Part shown: positions 10,407 to 63,822 of the stretch, piece by piece | Numbering within the stretch: the stretch's first letter is position 1 | Layout: each line of letters starts with the position of its first letter | Notes under the pieces: model-generated | What the model was told of the DNA's origin: nothing | The model's input: the letters and a program-made list of their open reading frames with translations, nothing else | Databases searched by the model: none | NCBI GenBank assembly: GCA_001002765.1 | Contig: LCMS01000005.1 | Location: 2,562 to 66,561 of the forward strand | Source of the DNA: Candidatus Uhrbacteria bacterium GW2011_GWE2_46_68 | Lineage (GTDB): Bacteria; Patescibacteriota; Patescibacteriia; UBA9934; GWF2-40-263 | Direction of reading: 5' to 3' | DNA length: 64,000 nt | Position numbers and translations under genes: made by a program

Positions 10407-10448
10407 AAAGAAAAGTAGTTTTTTGAAGTTTTATTACGACAAGTTTTT

Positions 10449-20824: not shown

Positions 20825-20845
20825 GAACCCTCCTTATGTTTGAAA

Positions 20846-20903: not shown

Positions 20904-20934
20904 GTTTCGTATCTCACCCACGTAAAGGACAGGT

Positions 20935-21903: not shown

Positions 21904-21956
21904 GAACCCTCCTTCCCACTTCGCCAAGGCTACGTGGGATGTATGTTTTTTTGAAT

Positions 21957-22013
21957 GAACGAAACCTTTCGGTGCTCTGCCGAGATTTTCAGCAGTGCGC
22001 AGAAAGGGGCGAG
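21957..22013 (-). promoter_or_regulatory. Copy B of the conserved intergenic stem-loop element
   Basis: See copy A; the inner hairpin here is CTGA...TCGG, with a G-U wobble replacing the CCGA/TCGG pairing. Confidence 0.6.
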
Positions 22014-22034
22014 GACGTATTCCTCACCCTTGAT

Positions 22035-24674: not shown

Positions 24675-24713
24675 GAAAGACCTCGAGGTTAGGTTGTTGA
24701 GAGGAGTTGTAAA

Positions 24714-24771
24714 GAACAAAACCTTTCGGTGCACTTCCGAGTTTCCTCGGCAGCGCGCAGAAAGGGCGATG
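24714..24771 (-). promoter_or_regulatory. Copy C of the conserved intergenic stem-loop element (inner hairpin CCGAG-GAAA-CTCGG)
   Basis: See copy A. Confidence 0.6.
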
Positions 24772-25404
24772 TTAGCGTGACATCGCCGTGTGACCATCAA
24801 GCCCCATCAGGTTCAAGATAGCCAACGCTTTTGAGTAATCCGTAACCCCGGTTATTTGGACAGCTCGATTTTCATGCATTCTGACCTCGAGATGAGAACC
24901 GGAAAGATCATCCATACAGTACCGGTCGGTCAAAAGGTGAATCCTTTGGTTACCCGATCCTCGCAGAGGAAGACCTTCAGTGTGGTGACGGATTTGGAAC
25001 GGACCGTCGATCAACACATCAATATGTTGGAGCAGATTTTGTGTTCCCCTTGATGCACGTCGTCCTTCCAGGCGTCTGCGTGTATATCCTGACCAAGCCA
25101 AGGTGGATAGACCAAGGATGTGAACAGCCTCGCAGAGTTCGGACAAGACAATCGCCTGATCAAACGGTTCACCGCCGGAAATGCTGATCCCTTCAATTCC
25201 GTATTCTTCTTTGGCCTTTCGGATTTTTTGCAACATTCGCCACAGAGCGATATCAGCTTTTGGATCTTGATCCAGGTAGAAGGGGGAGATGCATCCCGGG
25301 CAGCGAATCCTGCAGCCACGCACCCATAGGCAGGCCCGAAGGCCCGGTCCCATGGCACGCGTTGCCGGTTCGAAGTGCCCAAGATTGATCGTCTTTTTTC
25401 CCAT
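24772..25404 (-). CDS. nrdG: Anaerobic ribonucleotide reductase activating protein-like radical-SAM enzyme (NrdG family)
   Basis: GPGLRACLWVRGCRIRCPGC (CxxxCxxC), GISISGGEP, WSGYT, VLIDGPF, LRGSGNQ are collinear with E. coli NrdG motifs; no nrdD is visible in the window. Confidence 0.75.
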   Translation of the reverse strand: MGKKTINLGHFEPATRAMGPGLRACLWVRGCRIRCPGCISPFYLDQDPKADIALWRMLQKIRKAKEEYGIEGISISGGEPFDQAIVLSELCEAVHILGLSTLAWSGYTRRRLEGRRASRGTQNLLQHIDVLIDGPFQIRHHTEGLPLRGSGNQRIHLLTDRYCMDDLSGSHLEVRMHENRAVQITGVTDYSKALAILNLMGLDGHTAMSR

Positions 25405-25409
25405 GGCGT

Positions 25410-25625
25410 CTAGTTCTTTGCTCGGGCAGGAGCGTTTGGAATCGCCTGCGGGATTCCGGGGTCTTCGGAGCGTTCGTCCATCTCTTCGATGCCGGCGCCT
25501 AAAAGATCCAAGATGACCTTCATTCGTTCTGCGACTGCACGGCAGCCGGGACCAGGAGGGATGTCCACATCCACATTGCTTCGACCGCTTTTGGGATCAA
25601 TGATGACCGTGATGCGGCGGCTCAT
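25410..25625 (-). CDS. Small hypothetical protein (71 aa) with strong GGAGG Shine-Dalgarno; stop-start coupled to the upstream 172-aa ORF (TGA-n-ATG); ends 5 nt before nrdG
   Basis: ORF 25410..25664 trimmed to the internal Met with the best RBS; function unknown. Confidence 0.4.
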   Translation of the reverse strand: MSRRITVIIDPKSGRSNVDVDIPPGPGCRAVAERMKVILDLLGAGIEEMDERSEDPGIPQAIPNAPARAKN

Positions 25626-25626
25626 A

Positions 25627-26145
25627 TCAGACCTCCTCACGCAGATTGGTGGAGAGGATGACAAGGCCGTTACTGGTCGTTTGCTCGGTTGGCGTTCCGC
25701 CGATCAGTTGGAGCATGGCCTTGTACGCTTCGATTCGGTAGGCATCTTCCAATACCTTGGTCATTTGCTCGAGCTTGTGTGATCCTCTTTCCATTGCGTA
25801 TCCGTTCCAAAACAGAAGCAAAGTTGTTCCATCAAGCGCAACACCCAGTTGAACATCTCCTGATTGGAGCACACCTACACAAGTTCCATTGGGAGGGGCG
25901 CCACTTGCTGTCTGATAACTGGTGCTGTTGTCGTGGGAATCCTTGATTCTGCAGTTGTTGATCTTTGCTGCCGCTCGAGCGATGGCGCGCTTGGCCACTT
26001 CTTTTCGGATTGTCGACCAGTTGAGTCCTCGCAATTGACGTGCGAGCGCAGGGTCGGTCCTTTCAAGTTTCCTAAGTACATCATCCACACTGTCGCCTTG
26101 ATGCGAGAGCGTTTTTTGATGAAGTACATTCCAGTGTTGGCTCAT
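25627..26145 (-). CDS. Hypothetical protein (172 aa), first gene of the GC-rich minus-strand cluster; GGAGG RBS
   Basis: Intact ORF with protein-like composition; no recognisable motif. Confidence 0.45.
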   Translation of the reverse strand: MSQHWNVLHQKTLSHQGDSVDDVLRKLERTDPALARQLRGLNWSTIRKEVAKRAIARAAAKINNCRIKDSHDNSTSYQTASGAPPNGTCVGVLQSGDVQLGVALDGTTLLLFWNGYAMERGSHKLEQMTKVLEDAYRIEAYKAMLQLIGGTPTEQTTSNGLVILSTNLREEV

Positions 26146-26386
26146 AAGACCTCCATATGTGGGGGTTTGGGGGGTAAAGAACTGCGTTCCGCCTATGAGG
26201 GAGAACGCAATTTTTTATCAAAAAATAGCCAAAAAGTCAACGATTCTGCCTGTCTTTTGTGCCCTTTTAGACCTCATCAAAATGAACAAGAGAAAAATCG
26301 TTATTTTTCCCCAGTTTTTTGAGATTTTTCATTGCCCGTTCCCTTGGTTTGCGATACCATAAGAACGTTATTCTTTACGTATTTTT

Positions 26387-27685
26387 ATGCCCAAATCATC
26401 GGTTTCCACGATCGGATCCTTTCTTGGTCAGACTGTGACGCTTTCCGGTTGGGCATATAATTTTCGCTCAAGCGGAAAGATTTTTTTCTTGCAGTTTCGC
26501 GATGGTACTGGTCGCATCCAGGTAGTCTATTCCAAATCCCAGTTGTCGGAGGATCAATGGGCGGCTTTGGAATCGTTAAAAATGGAGTCCTCGGTTACGA
26601 TTACAGGAGTAGTTAAACAAGACGATCGTGCTCCATCTGGTTATGAAATTGATGGCGCGGCGTTTTCTATTATTCAACTTGCTCCGGACGATTATCCTAT
26701 TTCCAAGAAAGATCATGGACCTGATTTTCTTTTGGATCATCGCCATTTGTGGTTGCGCTCCGAACGCCAATGGGCCATTCAACGCGTGCGCGATACGATC
26801 ATTCACGCTACCTATGACTTCATGCGCGAGGAAGGATTTATAAAATTCGATTCCCCGATTTTGACACCCAATGCCTGTGAGGGAACCACCGAGCTTTTTG
26901 AAATGGATTATTTTGAAGAAGCAAAGGCGTACCTCTCTCAATCAGGACAGCTTTATTTGGAAGCGGGGATCATGAGCTTTGGTCGCGTGTTTGATTTTGG
27001 TCCTGTGTTTCGTGCCGAGAAATCCAAGACACGTCGTCATTTGACCGAGTTTTGGATGATGGATGCGGAGGCCGCATTTGTGGAGCACGAAGAAAACATG
27101 CAAACACAAGAAGCCTTAGTCGTTCGCATTGTTCAAGATGTGCTTGCAAAAAATCGCGGAGAGTTGGCTTTGTTGGAACGGGATGTTTCCGCTTTGGAAA
27201 AAATACAAGCCCCGTTTGTTCATCTCACCCACAAAGATGCTGTCGTGAGACTGCGTGAGCTTGGAAGTGATATTGGAGAACGTGATGATTTGGGTGCGGA
27301 CGACGAGACTTTGTTGACGAAGCTTTATGATCGTCCGATTTTTGTGGAAAAATATCCTTCCGAGGTGAAAGCGTTTTATATGAAGCGAGATCCTGTGGAA
27401 ACAGATCGCGTGCTTGGAAATGATCTTTTGGCTCCGGAAGGATATGGAGAAATCATCGGCGGCAGTCAGCGCGAGGATGATTATGAAATTTTAAAACAAC
27501 GCATTATAGATCACGGATTACCTTTGGAACCTTTTGCTTGGTATCTTGATTTGCGCAAATACGGATCCGTTCCTCATGCAGGATTTGGGTATGGACTTGA
27601 GCGCATTGTCGGATGGATTTGCGGGACCCAACATATTCGCGAGACCATTCCATTTCCTCGCCTTATCAATCGTTTGACACCTTAA
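26387..27685 (+). CDS. asnS: Asparaginyl-tRNA synthetase
   Basis: 432 aa; N-terminal OB fold; class II motifs FRAEKSKTRRHLTEFWMMDAEAAF characteristic of AsnRS. Confidence 0.8.
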   Translation: MPKSSVSTIGSFLGQTVTLSGWAYNFRSSGKIFFLQFRDGTGRIQVVYSKSQLSEDQWAALESLKMESSVTITGVVKQDDRAPSGYEIDGAAFSIIQLAPDDYPISKKDHGPDFLLDHRHLWLRSERQWAIQRVRDTIIHATYDFMREEGFIKFDSPILTPNACEGTTELFEMDYFEEAKAYLSQSGQLYLEAGIMSFGRVFDFGPVFRAEKSKTRRHLTEFWMMDAEAAFVEHEENMQTQEALVVRIVQDVLAKNRGELALLERDVSALEKIQAPFVHLTHKDAVVRLRELGSDIGERDDLGADDETLLTKLYDRPIFVEKYPSEVKAFYMKRDPVETDRVLGNDLLAPEGYGEIIGGSQREDDYEILKQRIIDHGLPLEPFAWYLDLRKYGSVPHAGFGYGLERIVGWICGTQHIRETIPFPRLINRLTP

Positions 27686-27695
27686 GCGTATTGTT

Positions 27696-29009
27696 ATGAA
27701 AGAACGTTTTTTTGTCCGTGAACTCCCGGAACACTTAGGTCAAGAAGTCGTGGTTGCCGGTTGGTTGCATCGTCTGCGGGATCTCAATAAATTCGGATTT
27801 GCTATTCTTCGAGATCGTACCGGACTTGTGCAAGTGGTTTTGGATTCGACACAACTCGAGCAACTTAAAGGATTGCAACTGGAGACTGTGCTTAAAATCA
27901 CCGGAACGGTTGTGAAAAAACAAAGTAAGGATCCGCAGGCAGAAGAGGTGGAAGTGCAGGCAAAGATCATGGAAGTACTGTCTCCTGTCACTGATGTGCT
28001 TCCCATTGAAATCAACAAAGATGATGTGGAGGCACAGTTGGATTCTATTTTGGATCATCGTGTGACTACGCTTCGTAATCTCAAACAGCGTGCGATTTTT
28101 CGTGTGCAAGCAGCGTTGGTTCATGGATATCGCGCGTATATGGAGCGCCAAGGATTTACCGAGATTTTTTTTCCTGTTTTGGCCGGAGCGGCGAGCGAAG
28201 GTGGAGCAGAATTTTTTAAAGTGGATTATTACGGGCGTGAAGCCATGCTGACTCAGTCCGCACAGCTTTATAAACAAATGATGGTGGGAGTGTATGAGGG
28301 AGTGTATGGGCTTTCGTATTCGTTTCGTGCGGAAAAATTCGCCACTTCGCGGCACCTGACCGAGTTTAATCAATTTGAGTTTGAAGTGGGATTTGTTGAT
28401 GGGATGGAAGATATTATGGCGTATGCGGAAGCTTCATTGCGCGAAATGTTGGCAACCGTGGAGCGTGAAAATACATCTGAGCTCAAACTTTTGAACGTGA
28501 CTCTTCCTCCTTTGGGCGAACATTTTCCATGTGTGCGATTAAAAGAAGCTTTGCAGTTTTATAAAGAGGGGACTGGGATTGATGAGACAAAAGAACCCGA
28601 TCTTTCCCCTGCAGCGGAAAAATGGTTGTCTACCGTATGGGCGCCGCACACACATGGATCCGGATTTGTTTTTGTAACGCATTACCCAACATCCAAACGC
28701 CCGTTTTACACGGCGGTTGATCCGCAAAATTCCGAGGAGACCTTGAGTTTTGATTTGATTGGATTTGGTAGTGAAATTATTTCCGGAGGTTTGCGTGTGC
28801 ATCGGTACGATGAACAAGTGGCGCGATTGAAAGCGAAAGGATTAAATCCGGCCGATTTTGAAGATTATCTGGCCATGCACAAATACGGTATTCCTCCTGA
28901 GGGGGGATTTGGCATGGGGCTTCAGCGTTTGACACAAAATATTTTGGGATTAGCCAATATCAAGGAGGCGACGATTTTTCCTCGCGATGTCCAGCGCCTG
29001 CGGCCGTAA
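27696..29009 (+). CDS. aspS: Aspartyl-tRNA synthetase, archaeal/short type
   Basis: 437 aa; QSAQLYKQ and FRAEKFATSRHLTEF motifs; class II core; lacks the bacterial-type insertion domain. Confidence 0.7.
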   Translation: MKERFFVRELPEHLGQEVVVAGWLHRLRDLNKFGFAILRDRTGLVQVVLDSTQLEQLKGLQLETVLKITGTVVKKQSKDPQAEEVEVQAKIMEVLSPVTDVLPIEINKDDVEAQLDSILDHRVTTLRNLKQRAIFRVQAALVHGYRAYMERQGFTEIFFPVLAGAASEGGAEFFKVDYYGREAMLTQSAQLYKQMMVGVYEGVYGLSYSFRAEKFATSRHLTEFNQFEFEVGFVDGMEDIMAYAEASLREMLATVERENTSELKLLNVTLPPLGEHFPCVRLKEALQFYKEGTGIDETKEPDLSPAAEKWLSTVWAPHTHGSGFVFVTHYPTSKRPFYTAVDPQNSEETLSFDLIGFGSEIISGGLRVHRYDEQVARLKAKGLNPADFEDYLAMHKYGIPPEGGFGMGLQRLTQNILGLANIKEATIFPRDVQRLRP

Positions 29010-51946: not shown

Positions 51947-53239
51947 TTAAATCATCACCGACGAGCGCATGCCATTGTTCCCATCCTGACTACGAGGATC
52001 GTTCCCGCCGAGGAGAGTCTGATGATCGTTATGGAACCAATACGCTCTTGGCACATGAATGGGAGAAAGAAAAAAAGCTCCTATGAGGTAAGAGATGCTC
52101 TCCATGCCATTTGCAACGTTATCCAGTGGTTTTCCTGTTTCTATAAGATGAATCATAAAGGCTATGATCCAATCTTCAGGAGTAAGCCCTGTTTCACCAT
52201 GATAGGGGGAGTTTTCATCTTTTTTGGAAGATTGAAGGAAAGAAAGATACTCAATGGGAGATTGACCTGCTTCAAGAGAAGGTCGAGGGACGAGGTCTCC
52301 TTGGGGTATTCCTCGGCCTTCTCTGGGAATGGAAGCAAAGCCTTTGGGAGTTTCTATGTTTTGTTCATCTGGGTTTGAAGGTTGGAGAAGATGAACAGTC
52401 CAACCAGGAAAAGAATCTTGATTGTCTTCTTGTTCTTTGAGTATCTGTGCCTTTGTCTTCCCCCCATGACCTTTTGTTGTAAAAGACTGTGGATAATAGA
52501 CAAGATTTGGAGAATCCCCCACATCTGCTCCTTGATATCCTGACCATACCCAAAGAGGTTCGTGCGTATAAAGATAAAAGGAAGGATTATTCTTCTTATA
52601 ATCGATAAGAAACTGTTTGAATGTTTCTCGGAGGCTATCAAGGCTCATGCCAAAGGGAACAAGAAGAAGTTTGGTAAAGCCTTGGTCGTGTTTAGTCTCG
52701 AGAGTCTCACGACGTTCAAACAGACGCATGGCGATTTGTTCCAAGGTGGGGATGGGATAAATCTTTCCATCTATGCCCAAGATAACTCCTTCTTTGAGGA
52801 TGCCTACTTGTTCAAGAAGGGAGACTTGAGAAGTGTATTGCTCACGAAGATTGTAAAGACGTTCAGCTTCTTGAAAATATTCGGGGAGTTTTTCTTCTTT
52901 TGGTTCCCCATTCTTAAGTAGATATTCAAAGCGTTCGAGAAGGAGAGCGAGTCGTTCAAGATCTGGGATGGAGAGTTTACAGGTCGCCTCACGCAGGAGG
53001 TCGGGCTTGCCAAGAGATTCTCTGGAAATCTCATGAGCTTTTGTAAAATCAATGATCTCTTGTCGCAGAGTTTCAAAATGCGCGCGATATTGTTCGGGCA
53101 AAGAATCACGGACACTTGAAACAGAATCCATGACGGCTTCGTGGAGAGTAGCGGATAAAGGAGGTTCAGAAGACAGAGTCCCCCTTCGTCCCGCCGTTGG
53201 CGGGACTTCGGGCCGTTTGAGAAAATTACAAGGAAGCAT
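51947..53239 (-). CDS. Member of the ~440-aa paralogous family (copy 2); lacks the GRWTPAFAGVAGGKGLGTPG insertion; its start overlaps the htpX stop; 12 nt upstream of clpC
   Basis: Collinear with 58418..59740 (LHEAVMDSVSSVRDSLPEQYRAHFETLRQEIIDFTKAH ... GFTKLLLVPFGMSLD ... NLVYYPQSF ... GWTVHLLQPSNP ... SPYHGETGLTPEDWIIAFMIHL ... RSSVMI). Confidence 0.75.
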   Translation of the reverse strand: MLPCNFLKRPEVPPTAGRRGTLSSEPPLSATLHEAVMDSVSSVRDSLPEQYRAHFETLRQEIIDFTKAHEISRESLGKPDLLREATCKLSIPDLERLALLLERFEYLLKNGEPKEEKLPEYFQEAERLYNLREQYTSQVSLLEQVGILKEGVILGIDGKIYPIPTLEQIAMRLFERRETLETKHDQGFTKLLLVPFGMSLDSLRETFKQFLIDYKKNNPSFYLYTHEPLWVWSGYQGADVGDSPNLVYYPQSFTTKGHGGKTKAQILKEQEDNQDSFPGWTVHLLQPSNPDEQNIETPKGFASIPREGRGIPQGDLVPRPSLEAGQSPIEYLSFLQSSKKDENSPYHGETGLTPEDWIIAFMIHLIETGKPLDNVANGMESISYLIGAFFLSPIHVPRAYWFHNDHQTLLGGNDPRSQDGNNGMRSSVMI

Positions 53240-54116
53240 CCATATGACGCAGGCGTTCGATACGTTTTTCAATCGGAGGATGAGTGCTGAACAAATGTTC
53301 AAATCGTTTGGTCACAAAAGGATCAAAGGGATTGGCAAGAAACAGATGAGCGGTTGCATGATTGGCTTTTTGTAAAGGGCGATCTTGAGTGGCGATTTTT
53401 TCCAAGGCTTGTGCCAGACCCTCCGGGTAACGTGTGAGAAGAGCGGCGGAAGCATCGGCCAGATATTCTCGTTTGCGACTGATCGCCAGTTTAATGAGCT
53501 CGGCAATCAAAGGAGAGAGGAGCGCCAGGACAATCCCAATGAGAAAAATCCAAACCGCGTTTTGTCCCTCTTGCCGTCTTCCACCAAAAAGATTTCCACG
53601 CAAAAGAATATCGGATAAAAGAAGAATGGCGCCGACCATAACAACAACCAAGGTCATGAAACGAATATCATAATTTTTAATATGAGAAAGTTCATGAGCC
53701 AAAACTCCTTCGAGTTCTTGTTTATCAAGAAGTTTGAGAAGGCCGGTGGTGACGGCAATCGCCGCATGGGCAGGATCGCGACCTGTGGCAAAGGCATTTC
53801 CCGCTTCATCGGGAATGATATAGATCGCAGGAGTGGCAAGGCCGCTTCCAATCGCCAGATTTTCCACCAAGCGATACAGCTCGGGCGCATCGGATTTTTG
53901 AATGGGTTTTGCCCCTGATGTCATGAGTGCCACTTTGTCTCCACTAAAATAACCGATCAATACAAGAATCGTCGCAAGGAGAGCGGCAAGGATAATGCCT
54001 CCTTCCGGAGATTCAAAAGCCGCTCCGAGCACCCAGCCCAGAGCGACCAAAAGAGTGGTACAGATAATGATAAGCAACCAAGAATCTCGTTTGTTGCGGG
54101 CAATGTCGGCGTACAT
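53226..54116 (-). CDS. htpX: Zinc metalloprotease HtpX (peptidase M48)
   Basis: 296 aa; HELSHIKNYD HExxH motif; TM topology. Confidence 0.9.
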   Translation of the reverse strand: MYADIARNKRDSWLLIIICTTLLVALGWVLGAAFESPEGGIILAALLATILVLIGYFSGDKVALMTSGAKPIQKSDAPELYRLVENLAIGSGLATPAIYIIPDEAGNAFATGRDPAHAAIAVTTGLLKLLDKQELEGVLAHELSHIKNYDIRFMTLVVVMVGAILLLSDILLRGNLFGGRRQEGQNAVWIFLIGIVLALLSPLIAELIKLAISRKREYLADASAALLTRYPEGLAQALEKIATQDRPLQKANHATAHLFLANPFDPFVTKRFEHLFSTHPPIEKRIERLRHMDASL

Positions 54117-54119
54117 GCA

Positions 54120-54671
54120 CTAGAACGTTACCTTTGGCGTTTGCTCAGCCTCGGAGGGGGCATCAAAGAATTCCTTTTTTTGAAAACCAAATGGGCCGGC
54201 AATCACATTGTTTGGAAAAGATTGCAAAGCCGTGTTGTAATCACGCGTCATGCCATTATAGAAGCGGCGAGACGCTTGGATTTTATCTTCGGCATCAGTG
54301 AGTTCTTGTTGGAGGTGCAAAAAATTTCCTGCGGCTTGGAGGGAAGGATAATTTTCCGCAACCGCAAAAAGAGATTTCAAGGATTGGGTGAGCATGTTTT
54401 CCGCTTGTGCATGATCGGTCATGGTTTGCGCATTCATGGCTGCGCTGCGTGCTTGAGTGACCTTGGTAAAAACAGAATCTTCATGCATAGCGTACGCCTT
54501 CACAGACTGCACAAGATTGGGAATAAGGTCATAGCGGCGCTTGAGTTGCACTTCGATATCGGACCACGCTTCTTCCACACGATTCCGCAGACGAATGAAA
54601 CGATTGTATGTTACAATAAGCCAACCGCACAGGATCACAAGCACGATCACGATCGCATAGATAATTTCCAT
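54120..54671 (-). CDS. lemA: LemA family protein
   Basis: 183 aa; N-terminal TM; conserved LemA core (RRYDLIPNLV ... ENYPSLQA). Confidence 0.88.
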   Translation of the reverse strand: MEIIYAIVIVLVILCGWLIVTYNRFIRLRNRVEEAWSDIEVQLKRRYDLIPNLVQSVKAYAMHEDSVFTKVTQARSAAMNAQTMTDHAQAENMLTQSLKSLFAVAENYPSLQAAGNFLHLQQELTDAEDKIQASRRFYNGMTRDYNTALQSFPNNVIAGPFGFQKKEFFDAPSEAEQTPKVTF

Positions 54672-54744
54672 AAAATAACGAAGAAAATTAGAGATTTTTC
54701 ACCTAAAATGGTACGGGATTTTCCCTTGAGCGTCAATCAAAATT

Positions 54745-56103
54745 ATGCAAGTTTCCCATGCGATTTTTAAGGCCTATGATATTCGTGGATTGGTAGGAAG
54801 TGAGATCACTCCAGAGTTGGCATATCATTTGGGTCGCGCGTACGTCACTTTTTTACGTGAACAATATTCCGACGAATCTCTTTCTGTTGTGGCAGGCCAT
54901 GATATGCGTCCTTCTTCTTTGGAATTGCAATCCGAACTCATCCGCGGTTTTGTGGATGGAGGCGCGCATGTTTTGGATATTGGTCTTGTTTCCACACCGG
55001 TTTTTTATTTTAGTGTGGGACATTTGAAAGCTCATGGAGGAATCACCGTGACAGCTTCTCATAACCCCGTCACATACAATGGATTTAAGTGCGTGCGGGA
55101 CATGGCGATTCCTGTGGGAGGAGACAGTGGATTTGCTCGTATCATTGAGTTGATCGAGTCCGAAGTCTATACACAGGGGGAGGGGAGTGTAGAAAAAATT
55201 TCCAATATCACAACCGTAGCGGTGGAGGCGCATAAGGCATTTGCCGGGGAAGGGGAGATACGACCCATGAAAATTGTGGCTGATCCCGGAAACGGCATGG
55301 GAGCCCAATATCTGGATGCGCTTTTCTCTCTTTTGCCTGTGGACGTTGTGCGTTTGTATTGGGATTTGGATGGCGCGTTTCCCAATCATGAATCCAATCC
55401 TCTCAAAGAAGAAACACTTAAAGATCTTCAAGCAAAAGTTGTGGCGGAAAAAGCTGATCTCGGTATTGCCACCGATGGGGATGGGGATCGCATCTTTTTT
55501 GTGGATGAAACAGGGAAAACCGTGGAGCCGGCGATCATTCGAGGAATACTGTCTCAAGTAATGTTGCGGCGTTTTCCTGGCGCTACGATTTGTTATGACG
55601 TGCGTCCGGGAAAAATCACTGAGGATATGATTGTGGAGGCAGGGGGCAAACCTTCGCGCACACCAGTGGGTCACTCCCTTATCAAAGCTCAAATGCGTCG
55701 AGAAGGAGCGGTGTTTGGTGGAGAATCTTCCGGTCACTTTTATTATAACTTTCCAACCGGGACATATGATGGGCCTGTCACATCTATTGTGCAGATTTTG
55801 CAAGAGATCACGCGGGCAGGGAAACCGTTTTCACAAATTGTCGCGCCTTTGCATCGTTACGCACATTCCGGAGAAATAAATTATCATGTGGAGGAGAAGA
55901 TCACGGCACTCGATCGGCTCAAAGCACAGTATGGAGATGGTAAACAAGACACACTCGATGGTCTAACCGTCACTTACCCCACCTATTGGTTTAATGTGCG
56001 ATCTTCAAATACCGAATCTCTTTTGCGACTCAATCTTGAAGCTATAGATCGATCTACCATGGAGACTAAGCGCGACGAAGTCGCCGCCATCATTCAACAA
56101 TAA
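54745..56103 (+). CDS. Phosphoglucomutase/phosphomannomutase (alpha-D-phosphohexomutase family)
   Basis: 452 aa; active-site TASHNP; four-domain architecture. Confidence 0.85.
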   Translation: MQVSHAIFKAYDIRGLVGSEITPELAYHLGRAYVTFLREQYSDESLSVVAGHDMRPSSLELQSELIRGFVDGGAHVLDIGLVSTPVFYFSVGHLKAHGGITVTASHNPVTYNGFKCVRDMAIPVGGDSGFARIIELIESEVYTQGEGSVEKISNITTVAVEAHKAFAGEGEIRPMKIVADPGNGMGAQYLDALFSLLPVDVVRLYWDLDGAFPNHESNPLKEETLKDLQAKVVAEKADLGIATDGDGDRIFFVDETGKTVEPAIIRGILSQVMLRRFPGATICYDVRPGKITEDMIVEAGGKPSRTPVGHSLIKAQMRREGAVFGGESSGHFYYNFPTGTYDGPVTSIVQILQEITRAGKPFSQIVAPLHRYAHSGEINYHVEEKITALDRLKAQYGDGKQDTLDGLTVTYPTYWFNVRSSNTESLLRLNLEAIDRSTMETKRDEVAAIIQQ

Positions 56104-56110
56104 TAATCGT

Positions 56111-57331
56111 ATGCCCATCATCACTGACCAAGAAAGAATCCATCATCTTTTAACACGAGGGGTGGAACACGTCTATCCTTCACGAGAGTTTTTGGAGGCA
56201 CGACTCAAAGAAGGAAAGCCGCTCACGCTTTACCTCGGCATTGATCCCACAGGACCCAATCTGCATATGGGGCATGCAATCGTGCTTCGCAAGATGCGCG
56301 AGTTTCAAGAGCTTGGGCACAAACTCATTTTGCTCATAGGGGATTTTACCGGCATGATCGGAGACCCTACGGATAAATCCGCTACGCGTGTACGATTGAC
56401 GCGGGAACAAGTTTTGGAAAACGCGAAAAATTATCAAGCGCAAGCATCCAAGCTTATTCTTCTTGAAGGAGAAAATGCCGCTGAGGTGAAATATAACAGC
56501 ACATGGCTTGGACAAATGACTTTTACTGATGTTGTAGAATTGGCTTCTCATTTTACTGTACAGCAATTACTCGAGCGCGATATGTTTCAAAAGCGTATGG
56601 AAGAGGGGCGCCCCATTCATTTGCATGAGTTCCTCTATCCCACTATGCAAGGCTATGACTGTGTAGCTATGAATGTGGACGGGGAAATCGGCGGAAATGA
56701 TCAGACGTTTAATATGCTCGCCGGTCGGGATTTGATGAAAGATTTGAAAGGACGGGAAAAGTTTGTGGTGACGATGAAATTACTCGTGGATCCAACCGGT
56801 AAAAAAATGGGCAAGAGCGAGGGAAACATGATTTGTCTTTGCGATAGTGCGGACGACATGTTTGGGAAGGTTATGAGTTGGACCGATGGCATGATTGTTC
56901 CCGGGTTTGAGCTCTGCACTTTTGAAACAGATAAGGAAATCCAGTCGATTGCCGTTCAACTTAAAGAAGGCATCAATCCGCGTGATCTTAAAGCGCAATT
57001 GGGACGCAAGGTCGCGGAGATTTATCACGGGGCAGAGGCGGCGCAAGCGGCATCTGATTGTTTTGACCAACTGTTTCGCGAGCACCAATCTCCCCGGGAG
57101 ATGCCGATCTTTGTCATCAATGGAGAGATGAATATCGTAGATCTTTTGGTGGCAAGCAAATCCGTTTCGTCAAAAACCGAAGCGCGCAGGCTTATTGATG
57201 GCAAAGGCATCAAGGTGGGGGATCGTGTGGTGGAAACATACGAGGAAACGGTCAACCCCACCAAAGAAGGAGTCATTCTTCAAAAAGGCAAACGTCATTT
57301 TGTCAAAATAGTTTTAACCCAAACCACATGA
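56111..57331 (+). CDS. tyrS: Tyrosyl-tRNA synthetase
   Basis: 406 aa; HMGH (HIGH), KMGKS (KMSKS), C-terminal S4 domain. Confidence 0.88.
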   Translation: MPIITDQERIHHLLTRGVEHVYPSREFLEARLKEGKPLTLYLGIDPTGPNLHMGHAIVLRKMREFQELGHKLILLIGDFTGMIGDPTDKSATRVRLTREQVLENAKNYQAQASKLILLEGENAAEVKYNSTWLGQMTFTDVVELASHFTVQQLLERDMFQKRMEEGRPIHLHEFLYPTMQGYDCVAMNVDGEIGGNDQTFNMLAGRDLMKDLKGREKFVVTMKLLVDPTGKKMGKSEGNMICLCDSADDMFGKVMSWTDGMIVPGFELCTFETDKEIQSIAVQLKEGINPRDLKAQLGRKVAEIYHGAEAAQAASDCFDQLFREHQSPREMPIFVINGEMNIVDLLVASKSVSSKTEARRLIDGKGIKVGDRVVETYEETVNPTKEGVILQKGKRHFVKIVLTQTT

Positions 57332-58416
57332 TTTGGACCATCATTCTTTTTATTGCGCTTCTTTCCCTTTTGGTTTTTGTCCATGAGCTCGGTCATTTTT
57401 GCGTAGCAAGACGCATGGGCATGAAGGTGGAGGAATTCGGATTTGGATTTCCTCCTCGGCTGTTTGGTATTCGTCCAAAACCTGAAGGAACGATTTACTC
57501 CATTAACTGTATTCCGATCGGCGGGTTTGTGCGCATTAAAGGGGAAGGAGGAGGAGAGACACAAGAGCCGGATAGTTTTGCTTCCAAAGCCGTGTGGAAA
57601 CGTTTTCTTGTTTTAGTGGCCGGTGTTGCCATGAACATCGCCCTTGCCGCGTTTTTGTTTATCATGGGATTTACTTTTGGGATTCCTTCCGTGATCACAG
57701 ATGATGTTCCTGCCTCGGCGCATATCATAGATGAGAAGATTCAGGTTTATTCCGTTTTATCTCAAAGTCCGGCCGAGATGGCAGGGATGGTACCAGGGGA
57801 CATTTTAATTTCGGTTGACGGTCAGGTTTTCGCCGAGTCCGAGGAGGTGCGCAATTATATTCAAACTCATGGAGACGAGGGGATTTTGATGACATGGAAG
57901 CAGACAAGCGGAGAGATAAAAACCGTAGCTATAACCGCAGCTGATCTTACTGAAATGGATTTTCATGGACTGGGAGTGGGGTTTGTGAAAACCGGTCTTG
58001 TTTCCTATCCTATTCATAAAGCGATTGTTCAAGGAATGGTTGCGACGGCAGCGTTAACATGGGATATCACAAAAGCGTTTGGGCAGATCATTAAAGATGT
58101 GGTGATTCATCAAAAAGTGGAAGCCGAACTTTCTGGACCTGTGGGGATTGCGGTGATGACCGGAGAGGTGGCGCAGATGGGATGGACATATTTGATTCAT
58201 TTTGCGGCCGTGCTTTCTTTGAATCTTGCCGTTATCAATATTTTGCCTTTCCCCGCGCTTGATGGAGGGCATGTAGTTTTTCTTTTGGTTGAAAAAATAC
58301 GTCGTAAGCCTGTGGGAGAATCCCTTCGTTCGCTCGCGAATAATCTCGGGTTTGCTTTTTTGATTATTCTTGCGGTCATCGTGACCTATCGTGATGTGAT
58401 CAACTTCGGAGCGTGA
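57328..58416 (+). CDS. rseP: RIP zinc metalloprotease RseP (site-2 protease, M50) with PDZ domain
   Basis: HELGHF, PDZ segment, LNLAVINILPFPALDGGHV motif. Confidence 0.88.
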   Translation: MIWTIILFIALLSLLVFVHELGHFCVARRMGMKVEEFGFGFPPRLFGIRPKPEGTIYSINCIPIGGFVRIKGEGGGETQEPDSFASKAVWKRFLVLVAGVAMNIALAAFLFIMGFTFGIPSVITDDVPASAHIIDEKIQVYSVLSQSPAEMAGMVPGDILISVDGQVFAESEEVRNYIQTHGDEGILMTWKQTSGEIKTVAITAADLTEMDFHGLGVGFVKTGLVSYPIHKAIVQGMVATAALTWDITKAFGQIIKDVVIHQKVEAELSGPVGIAVMTGEVAQMGWTYLIHFAAVLSLNLAVINILPFPALDGGHVVFLLVEKIRRKPVGESLRSLANNLGFAFLIILAVIVTYRDVINFGA

Positions 58417-58417
58417 T

Positions 58418-59740
58418 ATGTCTCTTTTTCGATCAAGTTTGGAATCCATCCCCTCTGCCACCCCCACGGAGGTGGGGGTCCAGCGCACTTCAGCAAATCT
58501 CCACGAAGCCATCATGGATTCGGTTTCAAGTGTTCGTGATTCTTTGCCCGAACAATATCGCGCACATTTTGAAACTTTGCGACAAGAGATTATTGATTTT
58601 ACAAAAGCTCATGGGATTTCCAGAGAATCTCTTGGCAAGCCCGACCTTCTGCGCGAGGCGACCAGCAAACTTTCCACTTCAGATCTTGAACGACTCGCTC
58701 TCCTTCTTGAGCGTTTTGAATATCTGCTTAAGAATGGGGAACCAAAAGAAGAAAAACTCCCCGAATATTTTCAAGAAGCTGAGCGTCTTTACAATCTTCG
58801 TGAGCAATACACTTCTCAAGTTTCCTTTCTTGAACAGTCTGGCATTCTCAAAGAAGGAGCTATCTTAGGCATAGATGGAAAGATTTATCCCATCCCCACC
58901 TTGGAACAAATCGCCATGCGTCTCTTTGAACGCCGTGAGACTCTCGAGACTAAACACGACCAAGGCTTTACCAAACTTCTTCTTGTTCCCTTTGGCATGA
59001 GCCTTGATAGCCTCCGAGAAACCCTCAAACAATTTCTCATCAAACATAAAGAGTTCCACTCCTCTTTTGATCTTAATGATCACCAACCTCTCTTGGCATG
59101 GTCAGAATATTACGGAGCAGACATAGGGAATTCTCCAAAGCTTGTTTATTATCCACAGTCTTTTACAAAAAAAGGTCATGGGGGGAAGACCAAGATGGAG
59201 ATACTTAAGGAACAAGCCAAAGGACGATGGACCCCTGCCTTTGCAGGGGTGGCAGGAGAGAAGGGATTGAGAACCCCCGGTTGGACGGTTCATCTTCTCC
59301 AACCTTCTAATCCTTCCAATCCACATTCCCCAGGCTTTGCTCCCATTCCCAGACAAGGCCAAGGAACACCCCAAGGAGACCTCATCCTTCGTCATCCTCT
59401 TGAAGCAAACAAAACCCCTATTGAATATCTTTCCATTCTTCAAAAAGCTCAAGAGGATGAAGACTCTCCCTATCATGGTGAAACAGGTATGACTCCCGAA
59501 GATTGGATCATGGCCTTTATGATTCACCTCACAGAAACAGGAAAACCTTTGGATAACTGGGAAAACGGGGGAGAAAGCAGGTCTTATCTTACAGGAGCTT
59601 TTTTTTCTTTCTCCATCTCCATCCTTGTGCCGGGCGCGGGCTGGAGCTGTGACAGTCGTCAGGTTCGCCTCGGATTGGGCGGTCATCGCTCTTCGCTGCA
59701 CGCCATGTTCAATGGAGTGCGGTCTTCGGTGGTGGTTTAA
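58418..59740 (+). CDS. Paralogous family protein, copy 3 (440 aa), function unknown
   Basis: Reference member; shares 50-80% identity blocks with copies at 1-897, 51947-53239, 60936-62252, 62265-63599. Confidence 0.8.
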   Translation: MSLFRSSLESIPSATPTEVGVQRTSANLHEAIMDSVSSVRDSLPEQYRAHFETLRQEIIDFTKAHGISRESLGKPDLLREATSKLSTSDLERLALLLERFEYLLKNGEPKEEKLPEYFQEAERLYNLREQYTSQVSFLEQSGILKEGAILGIDGKIYPIPTLEQIAMRLFERRETLETKHDQGFTKLLLVPFGMSLDSLRETLKQFLIKHKEFHSSFDLNDHQPLLAWSEYYGADIGNSPKLVYYPQSFTKKGHGGKTKMEILKEQAKGRWTPAFAGVAGEKGLRTPGWTVHLLQPSNPSNPHSPGFAPIPRQGQGTPQGDLILRHPLEANKTPIEYLSILQKAQEDEDSPYHGETGMTPEDWIMAFMIHLTETGKPLDNWENGGESRSYLTGAFFSFSISILVPGAGWSCDSRQVRLGLGGHRSSLHAMFNGVRSSVVV

Positions 59741-59841
59741 AACTACTCATTACCAAATCCTCGGATTGTCGATCAATATAAAACTCGCTAGACTGAAGGA
59801 GGTTTAGGAGATCATATTTTCATCAATAGAATCGATTATGT

Positions 59842-60897
59842 ATGCAAGAAACATTCACACAACTCATTGAACAATGCAAAGACGCGCTCAAAGCGGTGAG
59901 AGATCGGGCGGCATTGGAAGCGGTCGAGATAAAATTTTTAGGTCGTAAGGGTGAACTAGCTTCTCTTATGAAGCAACTTGCAACTCTTTCGGACGAAGAA
60001 AAGAAAATCGCCGGCAAAGTCGCCAATGAGACAAAAGAAAAAATAGAGCAGATGATCGCAAAGGCAAAAGAGAAAATCGCGCGTGAAGAAGAAAAGACGC
60101 GTGCCGATCGGGAATGGGTCGATGTGACCGCTCCGGGAGTGTTTCCCAATGAAGGGCATCTTCATCCTATAAGCCAAGCGATTCAGGAGATCACCGATGT
60201 GTTTGCACAAATCGGTTTTGTTTCCGTGCGCGCGCCCGAGATTGATTGGGACTGGTATGTGTTCGAGTCTCTCAATATGCCACCCGATCATCCTGCCCGC
60301 GATGATTGGGAAACGTTTTTTATCGCAGAGACCAAAGGACAAAAGGCGCGTGGAGAAAAAGGACGTTTAGTGCTGACTCCGCATACATCCAATGCCCAAG
60401 TGCGCGAAATGGAAAAAGGGAAGTTACCGATCCGCATGATCAATATCAATCGTACATATCGCCGACAATCCGATCCTTCCCATACTCCCATGTTCCATCA
60501 GTTTGAGGGATTGGTGATTGATGAAGGGATCACGATCGCGCATCTTAAAGGCGTGCTCGATTATTTTGCAAAATCTTTTTTTGGACCCGATCGTCAGATT
60601 CGTTTGCGTCCACATCATTTTCGATTCACCGAGCCGAGTTTTGAAGTGGATATTTCTTGCGGGGCGTGTGGAGGGAAAGGAGCGTGCCGCATCTGTAAAG
60701 CTGGGTGGTTGGAGCTTGGAGGAGCAGGGATGGTACACCCCAATGTGCTCAAGGCCGGGGGATTAGATCCGGAAAAAGTGTCCGGCTTTGCGTTTGGATG
60801 GGGAGTGGAGCGGACCTTGGTTATGAAAGAGGGAACAAAGATCGATGACATCCGCATTTTGTACAAGAACGACTTACGATTTATCAAACAGTTCTAA
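59842..60897 (+). CDS. pheS: Phenylalanyl-tRNA synthetase alpha subunit
   Basis: 351 aa; class II motifs (FRFTEPSFEVD, GWLELGGAGMVHP, FGWGVERT). Confidence 0.9.
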   Translation: MQETFTQLIEQCKDALKAVRDRAALEAVEIKFLGRKGELASLMKQLATLSDEEKKIAGKVANETKEKIEQMIAKAKEKIAREEEKTRADREWVDVTAPGVFPNEGHLHPISQAIQEITDVFAQIGFVSVRAPEIDWDWYVFESLNMPPDHPARDDWETFFIAETKGQKARGEKGRLVLTPHTSNAQVREMEKGKLPIRMININRTYRRQSDPSHTPMFHQFEGLVIDEGITIAHLKGVLDYFAKSFFGPDRQIRLRPHHFRFTEPSFEVDISCGACGGKGACRICKAGWLELGGAGMVHPNVLKAGGLDPEKVSGFAFGWGVERTLVMKEGTKIDDIRILYKNDLRFIKQF

Positions 60898-60935
60898 TAT
60901 CGATGAGAGGATTTTAGATACCATACTGTATTTTT

Positions 60936-62252
60936 ATGTCTCTTTTTCGACCAAGTTTAGAATCCTCTCCGTCTGCCACCCCTGCAGAAGCAGGGGCCCA
61001 GCGCACTTCAGCAAATCTCCACGAAGCCATCATGGATTCGGTTTCAAGTGTCCGTGATTCTTTGCCTGAACAATATCGCGTACATTTTGAAACTTTGCGA
61101 CAAGAGATTATTGATTTTACAAAAGCTCACGGGATTTCCAAAGACGCACTTTCCAATCCCAGCCTCCTTCGCGAGGTGACCTGTAAACTCTCCACTTCAG
61201 ACCTTGAACGACTCGCTCTCCTTCTTGAACGCTTTGAATATCTACTTAAGAATGGGGAACCGAAAAAAGAAGACTATACCGAAACCCTTGAGTATGCCGA
61301 AGAGTTTTATCATCTTCGTGAGCAATACACTTCTCAATTCAACCTTCTTAAAGAAGCGGGAATACTTAAAGAAGGAGTCATCCTAGGTATAGACGGTAAC
61401 ACCTATCCCATTCCCACCTTGGAACAAATCGCTTCTCGTCTCTTTGAACGCCGTGAGACTCTCGAGACTAAACACGACCAAGGCTTTACCAAACTTCTTC
61501 TTGTTCCCTTTGGCATGAGCCTTGATACTCTCCGAAAAACCCTCAAACAATTCCTTCTCAAGTACAAAAAAGATAATCCCTCCTTTGATCTCGATACCGA
61601 TGATCCTGTCTATGCATGGTCAAGCTATCAAGGAGCAGACATTGGGGATTCTCCAAACCTTGTTTATCACCCCAAGTCTTTTGACAAGGATGGACATGGA
61701 GGAAAGACAAAGACGCAGATACTCAAAGAACAAATAGAAGGACGATGGACCCCTGCCTTTGCAGGGGTGGCAGGAGGGAAGGGATTGGGAACCCCAGGTT
61801 GGACGGTTCACCTTCTCCAGCCTTCTGATCCTTCCAATTCACATTCCCTGGGCTTTGCTTCCATTCCCCGTGAAGGCCAAGGAACATCTCAAGGAGACGA
61901 GAACCCCCGCCCACCTTTTGAGGCAGGTAAAACCCCCAATGAATATCTTTCCATTCTTCAAAATGCTCAAAGCGATAAAGACTCTCCCTATCATGGTGAA
62001 ACAGGCATGACTCCCGAAGATTGGATCACAGCTTTTATGATTCATCTTTCGGAAACAGGAAAACCTCTTGATGATGTATGGAACCCCACAAACAAAGAAA
62101 GCATCTCTTACCTCACAGGAGCTTTTTTTCAATCCTGCATCGATGTGCCTTGCGTGTCTTGGCGCCGTGGTTCTCGTCTGGCTGACCTCTACGGGTCTGG
62201 TCCTCATGCTCGGGGTGAGAACTTTGGTTTGCTGTCTTCGGTGGTGGTTTAA
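60936..62252 (+). CDS. Paralogous family protein, copy 4 (438 aa)
   Basis: See copy 3; the first ~95 nt are identical to copy 5. Confidence 0.8.
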   Translation: MSLFRPSLESSPSATPAEAGAQRTSANLHEAIMDSVSSVRDSLPEQYRVHFETLRQEIIDFTKAHGISKDALSNPSLLREVTCKLSTSDLERLALLLERFEYLLKNGEPKKEDYTETLEYAEEFYHLREQYTSQFNLLKEAGILKEGVILGIDGNTYPIPTLEQIASRLFERRETLETKHDQGFTKLLLVPFGMSLDTLRKTLKQFLLKYKKDNPSFDLDTDDPVYAWSSYQGADIGDSPNLVYHPKSFDKDGHGGKTKTQILKEQIEGRWTPAFAGVAGGKGLGTPGWTVHLLQPSDPSNSHSLGFASIPREGQGTSQGDENPRPPFEAGKTPNEYLSILQNAQSDKDSPYHGETGMTPEDWITAFMIHLSETGKPLDDVWNPTNKESISYLTGAFFQSCIDVPCVSWRRGSRLADLYGSGPHARGENFGLLSSVVV

Positions 62253-62264
62253 CCTTTGATGTCT

Positions 62265-63599
62265 ATGTCTCTTTTTCGACCAAGTTTAGAATCCTCTCCG
62301 TCTGCCACCCCTGCAGAAGCAGGGGCCCAGCGCACTTCAGCAAATCTCCACGAAGCCATGATGGATTCGGTTTCAAGCGTTCGTGATTCTTTGCCTGAAC
62401 AATATCACGCACACTTTGAAACTCTGCGACAAGAGATTATTGATTTCACAAAAGTTCATGGGATTCCAAAAGAATCCCTTACCAAGCCCGACCTTCTGCG
62501 CGAGGTGACCTGCAAACTCTCCACTTCAGACCTTGAACGACTCGCCATTCTTCTCGAACGCTTTGAATATCTGCTTAAGAATGGGGAACCAAAGAAAGAA
62601 GAGATAGACCCTGCCAAAGCCATTGAGTATGTAGAGGAGCATTATCATCTTCGTAAACAATACGATTTTCAAGTAGAGCTTCTTGAGGAAGTAGGCATCC
62701 TCAAAGAAGGAGCGATCACGGGTATAAATGGTCATGATTATCCCGTTCCAACCCTCGAACAAATTGCCGTCCGTCTCTTTGAACGCCGCGAAGAACTTTC
62801 CACTAAACACGACCAAGGCTTTACCAAACTCCTCCTTGTTCCCTTTGGTATGAGCCTTGATACTCTCCAAGAAACCATCAAACAATTCCTTCTTAAGTAC
62901 AAGAAGGATCACCCATCTTTTGATCTCAATACCGATAACCCCCTCTGGGCATGGTCAAGCTATCAAGGAGCAGACACGGGGGATTCTCCAAACCTTGTCT
63001 ATTATCCACAGTCTTTTGATGAAAAGGATCATCAAGGAAAGACCAAGATGGAGATACTCAAAGAACAAACAGAAGGACGATGGACCCCTGCCTTTGCAGG
63101 GGTGGCAGGAGGGAAGGGATTGGGAACCCCAGGTTGGACCATTCATCTTCTCCAACCATCAAACCCGAACGAACAAGACATTGAAACTCCAAAAGGCTTT
63201 GCTCCCATTCCCCGACAAGGTAAAGGAAAACCACATCCCTCCCTTCGCGAAGGGAGGGACCGCCCTCCTCTTGAAGCAGGACAATCTTCCAATGAATATC
63301 TTTCCATTCTTCAAAAAGCTCAAGGTGATAAAGACTCTCCCTATTATGGTGAAACAGGCATGACTCCTGAAGACTGGATCATAGCCTTTATGATTCATCT
63401 TTCTGAAACAGGGAAGCCATTAGACAACTATGCAGATGGCACAGAAAGCATCCCCTACTTCACAGGATCTTTTTTCTCTTCCTCCACCTTTGTGCCTTTC
63501 GCGTATTGGCGCCGTGGCGATCGGCGGGTTTACTTCGGCGGGAGTGATCCTCGTGGTCGGGATGTGAACATTGGGGTGCGGTCTTCGGTGGTGGTTTAG
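62265..63599 (+). CDS. Paralogous family protein, copy 5 (start at the homologous MSLFRP; the ORF opens at 62256 with TTG)
   Basis: See copy 3. Confidence 0.8.
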   Translation: MSLFRPSLESSPSATPAEAGAQRTSANLHEAMMDSVSSVRDSLPEQYHAHFETLRQEIIDFTKVHGIPKESLTKPDLLREVTCKLSTSDLERLAILLERFEYLLKNGEPKKEEIDPAKAIEYVEEHYHLRKQYDFQVELLEEVGILKEGAITGINGHDYPVPTLEQIAVRLFERREELSTKHDQGFTKLLLVPFGMSLDTLQETIKQFLLKYKKDHPSFDLNTDNPLWAWSSYQGADTGDSPNLVYYPQSFDEKDHQGKTKMEILKEQTEGRWTPAFAGVAGGKGLGTPGWTIHLLQPSNPNEQDIETPKGFAPIPRQGKGKPHPSLREGRDRPPLEAGQSSNEYLSILQKAQGDKDSPYYGETGMTPEDWIIAFMIHLSETGKPLDNYADGTESIPYFTGSFFSSSTFVPFAYWRRGDRRVYFGGSDPRGRDVNIGVRSSVVV

Positions 63600-63758
63600 T
63601 CCTTGTCCTTTAATCTTTGTCCTTTTTTTATTCTTTATCTTTATCCTTCATCGTATAGTGTCTGGCTGTCATATGTGTGATGACTGATCACACATCAGGA
63701 AAAGATTTTTATCAGCGAATAGTCACCCGATTCAAGTCGGGCTGCCGAGCAATACCAA

Positions 63759-63822
63759 CCATCTTTCCCGCCTAAGGCGACGACGACGCAGCGTCGTCGT
63801 CGCGGCGCGATGGTTGGTATGA
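63759..63822. repeat. Nested perfect palindrome: outer ATACCAACCATC/GATGGTTGGTAT and inner CGACGACGACGC/GCGTCGTCGTCG
   Basis: Seen directly; lies in a ~400-nt non-coding stretch after copy 5. Confidence 0.6.

Follow-up and report, generated by a model that had tools for sequence, protein, structure and literature searches.

The window analysed here, a 64,000-nt stretch of DNA from Candidatus Uhrbacteria bacterium GW2011_GWE2_46_68 (assembly GCA_001002765.1, contig LCMS01000005.1, positions 2,562-66,561 of the forward strand; genome GC content about 46%), holds five copies of a gene for a hypothetical protein of about 440 aa. GC-rich hairpins lie inside the coding sequences of these copies, and they are described here together with the short palindromic repeats to which they probably belong. 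The protein has 304 homologues, and every named one comes from Candidatus Uhrbacteria, a lineage of the Candidate Phyla Radiation (CPR). No match to it was found in Pfam, NCBIfam, PADLOC, or the PDB by single-sequence and profile searches. The five copies are the following:

2-897, plus strand: copy 1, cut by the window edge, frameshifted and missing about 20 internal codons (LLLVPF...DHPSFDL)
51947-53239, minus strand: copy 2, an open reading frame (ORF) with an in-frame ATG at 53239
58418-59740, plus strand: copy 3, 440 aa, 73% identical to copy 4
60936-62252, plus strand: copy 4, 438 aa
62265-63599, plus strand: copy 5, started at the ATG that gives MSLFRPS (the ORF list begins at TTG 62256)

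Judging from its frameshift and deletion, copy 1 is probably a pseudogene; it also lacks the insert at hotspot 2, one of three sites described below. If copy 2 starts at the ATG at 53239, it shares 14 nt with the 3' end of htpX (stop codon 53226-53228), and this is the sole in-frame ATG placing the hairpin of this copy within the coding sequence. The N-terminal leader of copy 2 is a degenerate form of the family leader, shorter by 21 nt, plus an element, B.

The hairpins reported near the start of these genes in a preliminary description of this DNA are real and non-random. The window contains 28 perfect stems of 7 bp in which 5 or more positions are G/C, vs 3.1 +/- 2.0 in shuffled sequences. 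Copies 4 and 5 carry CCCCTGC-AGAA-GCAGGGG at 60979-60996 and 62308-62325, as reported. The hairpin of copy 3 is also present, with a stem of 8 bp (ACCCCCAC-GGAG-GTGGGGGT, 58460-58479) instead of 7 bp, and that of copy 2 on the minus strand is present with a different parse, GTCCCGCC-AAC-GGCGGGAC (53188-53206) rather than 7+4+6. The encoded peptides SATPAEAGAQ, SATPTEVGVQ, and PPTAGRRGTL are as claimed, and so are the compensatory changes: copy 3 is in register with copies 4 and 5, and two double changes separate them. The first is from C-G to T-A at two synonymous third positions, pairing that of a Pro codon with that of a Val/Ala codon, and the second is from A-T to G-C. When folding was checked as proposed, the isolated hairpins were stable (-15.4 to -20.3 kcal/mol, z -2.1 to -3.8), but the 123-nt 5' regions overall were not unusually structured (z 0.1 to -0.6).

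Four hairpins that had been missed lie in the same genes, at 59231-59250, 61749-61768, 63084-63103, and 63236-63259. The first three, in copies 3, 4, and 5, respectively, have the form ACCCCTGC-CTTT-GCAGGGGT and use 7-mer arms identical to those of the N-terminal hairpin of copies 4 and 5. All of the additional hairpins of copies 3-5 are in segments missing from copies 1 and 2. The stems were also considered as intrinsic terminators. This was rejected because no T run follows them, and they lie inside ORFs. The copy 2 hairpin, 20 nt past the htpX stop codon, was rejected as a terminator too, being 100% identical to the coding element B, with the in-frame ATG 53239 upstream and no T run.

In copies 3-5, the hairpin forms the core of element A, a repeat some 42-50 nt long that occurs in both orientations within the same genes:

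58454-58495, plus strand: element A, sense, copy 3; hairpin 58460-58479; cmsearch 66.6 bits; fold -18.4 kcal/mol; encodes SATPTEVGVQRTSA
60972-61013, plus strand: element A, sense, copy 4; hairpin 60979-60996; cmsearch 61.4 bits
62301-62342, plus strand: element A, sense, copy 5; hairpin 62308-62325; cmsearch 61.4 bits
59215-59256, minus strand: element A, inverted, hotspot 2 of copy 3; hairpin 59231-59250; encodes GRWTPAFAGVAG
61735-61774, minus strand: element A, inverted, hotspot 2 of copy 4; hairpin 61749-61768
63068-63109, minus strand: element A, inverted, hotspot 2 of copy 5; hairpin 63084-63103; found by model match and pairwise alignment

Further relatives were drawn from a metagenome scan because a scan of genome contigs gave just 5 distant homologues (38-44% identity), which had no hairpins at the hotspots. 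The metagenome scan was anchored on the conserved block directly 3' of the variable N-terminus and yielded 75 loci, designated below by L numbers. Together with the window these amount to 644 kb and hold 121 N-termini of the family, 107 of them unique. A covariance model of 42 nt and 8 bp, built from just 29 N-terminal copies of A, was run over the 644 kb with cmsearch. It gave 94 matches, all in family genes, two of which were partial and located at contig ends. The plus-strand matches were at N-termini, and full-length minus-strand matches followed about 760 nt downstream, at hotspot 2. Matches of 75-78 nt were copies with another palindrome, C, nested in the 3' arm, and elsewhere A is nested with other palindromes. 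In copy 3, this N-terminal-only model matched the minus strand of 59215-59256 across its full 42 positions (E 6.6e-5). The match lies within a length excess of 13-17 aa relative to copies 1 and 2, in which GRWTPAFAGVAGEKGLRTP, 19 aa long, stands in place of a shorter segment. Pairwise alignment of the N-terminal region with the reverse-complemented hotspot 2 also recovered the inverted element in copy 3, and in copy 4 the two elements aligned in this way were identical at 41 of 50 nt, flanks included.

The arms of A covary. Among the 29 N-terminal copies, 90.9% of the stem cells were paired, vs 38-52% with the 3' partners slid, and the covariation score was reached by none of 500 shuffles. Pair 12-21 was UA in 21 copies, CG in 7, and UG in 1, and pair 13-20 was GC in 22, AU in 5, and GU in 2. 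The arm variants TGC/GCA, CGC/GCG, and CAC/GTG are common to the N-terminus and hotspot 2. The covariation that the preliminary description had proposed to look for in further members was found in these homologous N-termini. Base-pair covariation is expected of a cis-regulatory hairpin, and it is also expected from maintenance of a palindrome at the DNA level.

The peptide encoded by A varies with its placement. One DNA element is read as SATPAEAGVQRTSE, RHPRGGGDPASS, GRWTPASAGVAG, or RPLPPQGLQG according to frame and orientation, and 4 of its 6 open frames are used. Module E of the N-terminus is the DNA of A one base out of frame (CATCCCCGCGGAGGCGGGGATCCAGCG), and module F (RPLPPQGLQG) and an internal GRWTPA[FS]AGVAG segment are its reverse complement. 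The consensus is open in all six frames, which is no more than base composition predicts for short elements. Segments from which element-encoded tryptic peptides would come include SATPAEAGAQR, WTPAFAGVAGGK, and an insert in murC described below. The earlier claim that maintenance or selection acts on the nucleic acid rather than on the peptide is supported, since one DNA element is read as differing peptides and its stem pairs covary. It is scarcely credible that the stems result simply from the codons that encode a conserved peptide rich in Pro, Ala, and Gly. The CCN (Pro) and GGN (Gly) codons are indeed complementary, and the peptides are rich in P, A, and G. However, this explanation fails because the peptide shifts with the frame while the DNA stays constant, and four frames or orientations of the conserved DNA are in use; synonymous third positions covary, and pairing drops in the slid-register controls.

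A census of the 100 complete unique N-termini showed a mosaic arrangement between MSLFRPS.ES and LHEAIMDS, made up of eight or more hairpin modules. Module A occurred in 28 (PAEAGAQRTSEI), with many copies degraded to 4-5 bp, module B in 18 (VFTKSENCPSEVPPTAGRRGTLS), A with nested C in 8, D in 7 (DPSRRDGRDES), E in 6 (RHPRGGGDPASS), and G in 4, and the last 7 had H alone or combinations. The other 22 were free of modules, with a best perfect stem of at most 5 bp (for example, MSLTRPSPEFVPSTTLHEA). The hairpin is therefore not universal in the family, and members without one are what the preliminary description had itself named as evidence against its proposal.

Element B is 69 nt long and consists of an A/T-rich 5' hairpin and a GC hairpin. 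Its insertion point is about 24 nt upstream of that of A, and locus L023 has B and A in tandem. The copy 2 hairpin, which had been placed at the equivalent position, is not a diverged version of the stem of A but the GC hairpin of B:

53171-53211, minus strand: element B, 3' portion only, copy 2; hairpin (GC) 53188-53206; 100% identical to B in L009

The identity to the L009 copy runs from CCGAAG on, and the A/T-rich 5' hairpin of B has been lost by deletions. A B-like hairpin was also seen in the 5' leader of a family gene in L021 (about 5830-5880; also in L018), next to a GGAGG motif. Its 3' flank, CGAAGGAGGG, is Shine-Dalgarno-like, lies 13 nt before an ATG, and pairs in part with ACCCT on its 5' side, an arrangement that could sequester the ribosome-binding site in that single context.

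Element D occurs in copy 5:

63236-63259, palindromic and without assigned strand: element D, hotspot 3; TCCCTCCCTTCGCGAAGGGAGGGA, a palindrome of 24 nt without mismatches; translated as PSLREGRD, in an insertion of 3 aa

Palindromes of this type recur at the N-termini of other family members and in murC. There were 7-8 distinct perfect palindromes of 24-26 nt, differing by compensated changes that include transversions, and just three imperfect copies were found. The composite element H has terminal inverted repeats, CGGCAACC.CCCTC ... GAGGGGTGGTTGCCG.

The distribution of the hairpins along the family genes is narrow. The 173 kb of family genes contained 146 perfect GC-rich hairpins, at three hotspots alone, corresponding to residues ~10-25, ~272-277, and ~320-328 of copy 4; the two internal sites are about 800-1000 nt into the gene. 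In the remaining 471 kb there were 110 perfect GC-rich hairpins, mostly terminator-like or at unannotated edges of family genes. Types recurred between hotspots: A and A with C were shared by hotspots 1 and 2, where their orientations are opposite, G was likewise common to these two, and D was seen at 1 and 3. All hotspots fall within the lowest-confidence segments of the AlphaFold2 model of copy 4 (residues 1-26 and 229-338, predicted local distance difference test score below 50), although this model is poor as a whole (mean score 48.6). At hotspot 2 of L058 (~6663), L027, L060, L068, L072, and L077, a Pro/Thr-rich segment, KTNYKLPTLTPTQ..., replaces the palindrome, and in L058 it has grown to a (PT)n run.

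A role of the hairpins in translational control near the start or in mRNA stability, as was first suggested, is hard to reconcile with this distribution, and selection on mRNA structure for such control of the family genes seems improbable to us, although single copies might still have a regulatory role. The stems do covary, paired synonymous sites included, and the hairpins are stable; G.U pairs are slightly in excess on the mRNA strand, and B-like hairpins at times lie in a 5' leader beside GGAGG, as in L021. On the other hand, 22% of the N-termini are hairpin-free, many A copies are down to 4-5 bp, and elements occur in both orientations, at the internal sites, in murC, and in intergenic DNA. 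The insertion points differ, so position and orientation are not fixed among homologues. The stem begins at about +34 in copy 2 (if ATG 53239 is used) and at +43 in copies 3-5, which is outside the footprint of the initiating ribosome. The 5' regions as a whole are unremarkable in structure, as given above. Finally, a search of Rfam 15 gave tRNAs as the sole matches; one score for a miRNA model, 31.9 bits vs a gathering score of 87, was attributed to chance.

The N-terminal half of the family proteins (copy 4 residues 35-190; window and L006-L080) is a pronounced mosaic. Distance matrices of adjacent N-terminal segments correlated with r of just 0.2-0.4, vs 0.75 in the C-terminal half, indicating frequent recombination among paralogues. 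N-terminal and hotspot-2 modules assort freely, and module type is nearly independent of the similarity of the neighbouring sequence (0.216 vs 0.231). The mosaic structure and the free assortment would fit hairpins that act as DNA signals promoting recombination or cassette exchange among paralogues, resulting in a variable protein family. The recombination hot spot proposed earlier was examined at hotspot 2, however, and was not found there: the matrices on either side correlated with r=0.75, equal to two adjacent C-terminal control segments, with no excess of breakpoints. Elements are present in the single-copy murC too, and we consider such a signalling function very unlikely.

Several comparisons show elements present or absent between otherwise identical sequences, in units of 27-36 nt. 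L029 and L027 have 170 nt of identical flank, and their sole difference is a 33-nt unit, C1; the sole difference between L058 and L070 is a 36-nt unit, C2. C1 and C2 share one insertion point in the 3' arm of A, GGAGGCGG^GGATCC, although A is in another frame in the second pair. Divergence among copies was also compared with that of the adjoining DNA. The 18 copies of B differ by 2.0%, vs 23% (third positions 40%) in the adjoining 240 nt of the host genes, and the values were 8.8% vs 23% for D and 18.8% vs 20.4% for A. From these sequence comparisons, A looks old and decaying.

Insertions were also found outside the family, the clearest in murC:

L039 9555-10988: murC with insert at ~10343-10417; PDB 9ir5, E 3e-85
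L081 3001-4407: murC allele, near-identical to that of L039 (1383/1404 aligned nt)

The L039 gene contains a composite element as a 25-aa in-frame insert, EDVSPATTPHPSSRERRDRPSLERS, which is missing from six orthologues, one of them 84% identical. Residues 250-284 are unaligned to PDB 9ir5, and the insert sits between two aligned blocks. The DNA of the insert is 95% identical over 61 nt, in reversed orientation, to an element in the N-terminus of the L036 family gene. The L081 allele lacks just a 27-nt nested D palindrome, a difference suggesting that this essential gene gained or lost it very recently. In native murC, TGGAAAGGAG is similar to the end of the element inserted there, a hint of microhomology. 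In L034 (34-1395), one ORF of 453 aa joins a DUF559-like endonuclease domain and MiaA, with an H element (394-466) as the linker, and this ORF may be a gene fusion made by an element with an open reading frame. In addition, B-like or C-like hairpins lie at a few intergenic sites. Viral contigs scanned for exact patterns of B, D, and A gave no match.

These observations bear on whether transposition is needed at all. Palindromes might arise and be perfected locally by template switching during replication (quasipalindrome correction or inverted duplication) and spread solely by gene conversion among paralogues. This mechanism is documented (PMC8794818, PMC5453318, PMC8604942), and it would agree with the D palindromes that are perfect yet differ by compensated transversions, the hierarchical and nested structures, the inverted A copy within the same gene, the strong family bias, the failure to find target-site duplications, and the microhomology of TGGAAAGGAG in murC. 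It does not account for the 61-nt element that murC shares with a family gene, for the copies in intergenic DNA and in the DUF559-MiaA linker, or for the two distinct C variants at one identical point in A. Near-identical copies at unrelated loci therefore require some non-homologous transfer between loci, and we find the explanation by local events and paralogue conversion unlikely, if less so than a function in mRNA.

We consider it likely that the hairpins are the cores of short in-frame palindromic repeats that lie mostly in variable linkers of one multi-copy family and show selfish or mobile behaviour, similar to the Rickettsia palindromic elements (RPEs). Selfish or mobile behaviour is suggested because the same element occurs at varied sites, in varied orientations and frames, nested, in intergenic DNA, and in unrelated housekeeping genes. 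Elements A, B, C, D, G, and H are GC-rich palindromic DNA repeats of 27-75 nt residing in-frame within protein-coding genes, and according to this model the survivors would be those insertions that preserve the frame and bring no stop codon. They would add a peptide rich in Pro, Gly, Ala, Ser, and Arg to regions without a confidently predicted fold. The hairpin potential would be kept because the palindrome is the unit copied or maintained at the DNA level, not because the host needs an mRNA structure, with the two arms homogenised or co-selected. Two mechanisms of spread are candidates. One would be a hairpin-recognising Y1 transposase of the type of the REP-associated tyrosine transposases (RAYTs; REP, repetitive extragenic palindrome). 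The other would be replication template switching together with gene conversion among paralogues, as template switching perfects hairpin arms and mimics compensatory substitution (PMC8794818, PMC5453318, PMC8604942).

A RAYT-like Y1 transposase gene is present in L086 (2431-3309), beside a tRNA gene; three family genes stand in tandem on the same contig. The RAYT-like gene scored 57.4 bits with Pfam Y1_Tnp and 72.3 bits with NCBIfam REP_Tyr_transpos, vs a cut-off of 80 for the latter.

Several results weigh against mobile repeats of this kind. No elements were seen in the upstream flank of the L086 gene, and its 3' end overlaps the next gene. No transposase domain was found in the 20 window ORFs scanned. 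No convincing target-site duplications were seen at the C, D, and murC junctions, which have only fuzzy direct repeats such as TCTGCC/TCAGCA and, in murC, a TGGAAAGRAG microhomology. The elements are also skewed toward the family. About 560 kb of other DNA has only about 7 sites (murC, the DUF559-MiaA linker, and about 5 intergenic ones), and about 88 kb of extra non-family DNA around family genes held no new non-family insertion besides the murC allele. Such a distribution is odd for free transposition, and it could result from gene conversion among paralogues or from a family-specific function. The near-invariance of B could likewise reflect function instead of recent spread. Lastly, on the mRNA strand G.U (G.T) mismatches weakly exceeded A.C mismatches, in ratios of 26:14 (N-terminus) and 4:2 (hotspot 2); the counts are small and the events non-independent, and the direction is that expected for selection at the RNA level.

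Among known systems, the RPEs are the most similar in the comparisons made. They are elements of about 100-150 bp (Ogata et al. 2000, 2002, as reviewed in PMC10969869 and PMC6649704). Both kinds of element are translated as an extra peptide where the protein tolerates it, confer no obvious advantage on the host, and are degraded in their older copies. The Uhrbacteria units are likewise palindromic repeats in many copies (94 model matches for A, 18 near-identical copies of B, and recurrent D, C, G, and H) and lie in-frame in unrelated genes, namely the family genes, murC, and the L034 ORF. In a comparison based on published descriptions, they differ in being 27-75 nt long. They also differ in being GC-rich, near-perfect hairpins that are nested and used in several frames and both orientations, in lying overwhelmingly at three hotspots of one paralogous family, and in having a CPR host.

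REP elements, which are GTAG/CGTC-tagged palindromes associated with RAYTs (PMC3733652), are similar in being GC-rich multi-copy palindromes of 20-40 nt, and the L086 gene on a related contig is RAYT-like. In contrast to the extragenic REPs, the Uhrbacteria elements are mostly intragenic and in-frame, with intergenic copies as rare as noted above. They have no conserved terminal GTAG/CGTC tag: A and B have neither motif, GTAG occurs only in the loop or arm of some C copies, and CGTC only in one D variant. No elements were seen flanking the L086 gene, and no such domain was found in the 20 window ORFs scanned. With regard to miniature inverted-repeat transposable elements, H has terminal inverted repeats, but target-site duplications were not convincing at the junctions named above.

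GC-rich hairpin elements are also known from organelles, such as the yeast mitochondrial GC clusters and the double-hairpin elements of Allomyces. In the mitochondria of Nematomorpha, hairpin-forming repeats lie within coding sequence (PMC6649704). The organelle coding palindromes are similar to those described here in gain and loss between relatives and in arms kept perfect, and template switching has been proposed to maintain them. The Uhrbacteria elements differ by their location in a bacterial chromosome, by being far shorter than the Nematomorpha repeats, and by being centred on one family. Quasipalindrome correction by template switching would itself explain perfect arms and compensatory-looking changes of several bases without selection on RNA. 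However, it is a mutational mechanism and not an element family, and alone it leaves near-identical copies at unrelated loci unexplained.

No account of such elements in Patescibacteria/CPR turned up in a literature search. A system analogous to the RPEs in a streamlined CPR genome would mean that the phenomenon is broader than thought, with units that are shorter, nested, and read in several frames, and with recent gain or loss even in murC. The findings are also a warning for comparative prediction of RNA structure, because covarying stems in coding sequence can stem from the biology of DNA palindromes. The elements also lend themselves to study of the route by which short palindromes are propagated, whether Y1/RAYT enzymes or replication template switching, and of how they create new linker sequence in proteins. 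More tentatively, and with some doubt on our part, CPR Uhrbacteria might harbour a currently active, hitherto undescribed class of nested coding palindromes of 27-75 nt that insert seamlessly and in-frame even into the essential murC, mobilised by a RAYT-like Y1 transposase or by template switching with microhomology, with one family as the main reservoir. If so, linker evolution in the proteins of a minimal genome would be driven by these palindromes.

Some other features were noted in passing. On the 3' side of copy 5 (window 63681-63822) there is a leader of the MTDHTSGKDFYQRIV type, which in other loci is placed before family genes. Behind it, an extended but imperfect palindrome occupies 63752-63822 (folded as DNA, -32 kcal/mol, z -6.3). 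In L056, GTCCAGC-CTTTG/CAAAG-GCTGGAC hairpins (6608-6626 and 6747-6765) lie directly 3' of two tRNA genes, and a hairpin at L015 4446 resembles them; these hairpins are unrelated to the coding elements. Elsewhere in the window, 19829-29009 encodes two adjoining WD40 beta-propeller proteins, two adjoining class II (D/K/N-type) aminoacyl-tRNA synthetase paralogues, and a 921-aa AAA ATPase, the last in a region of raised GC content (52-53%).

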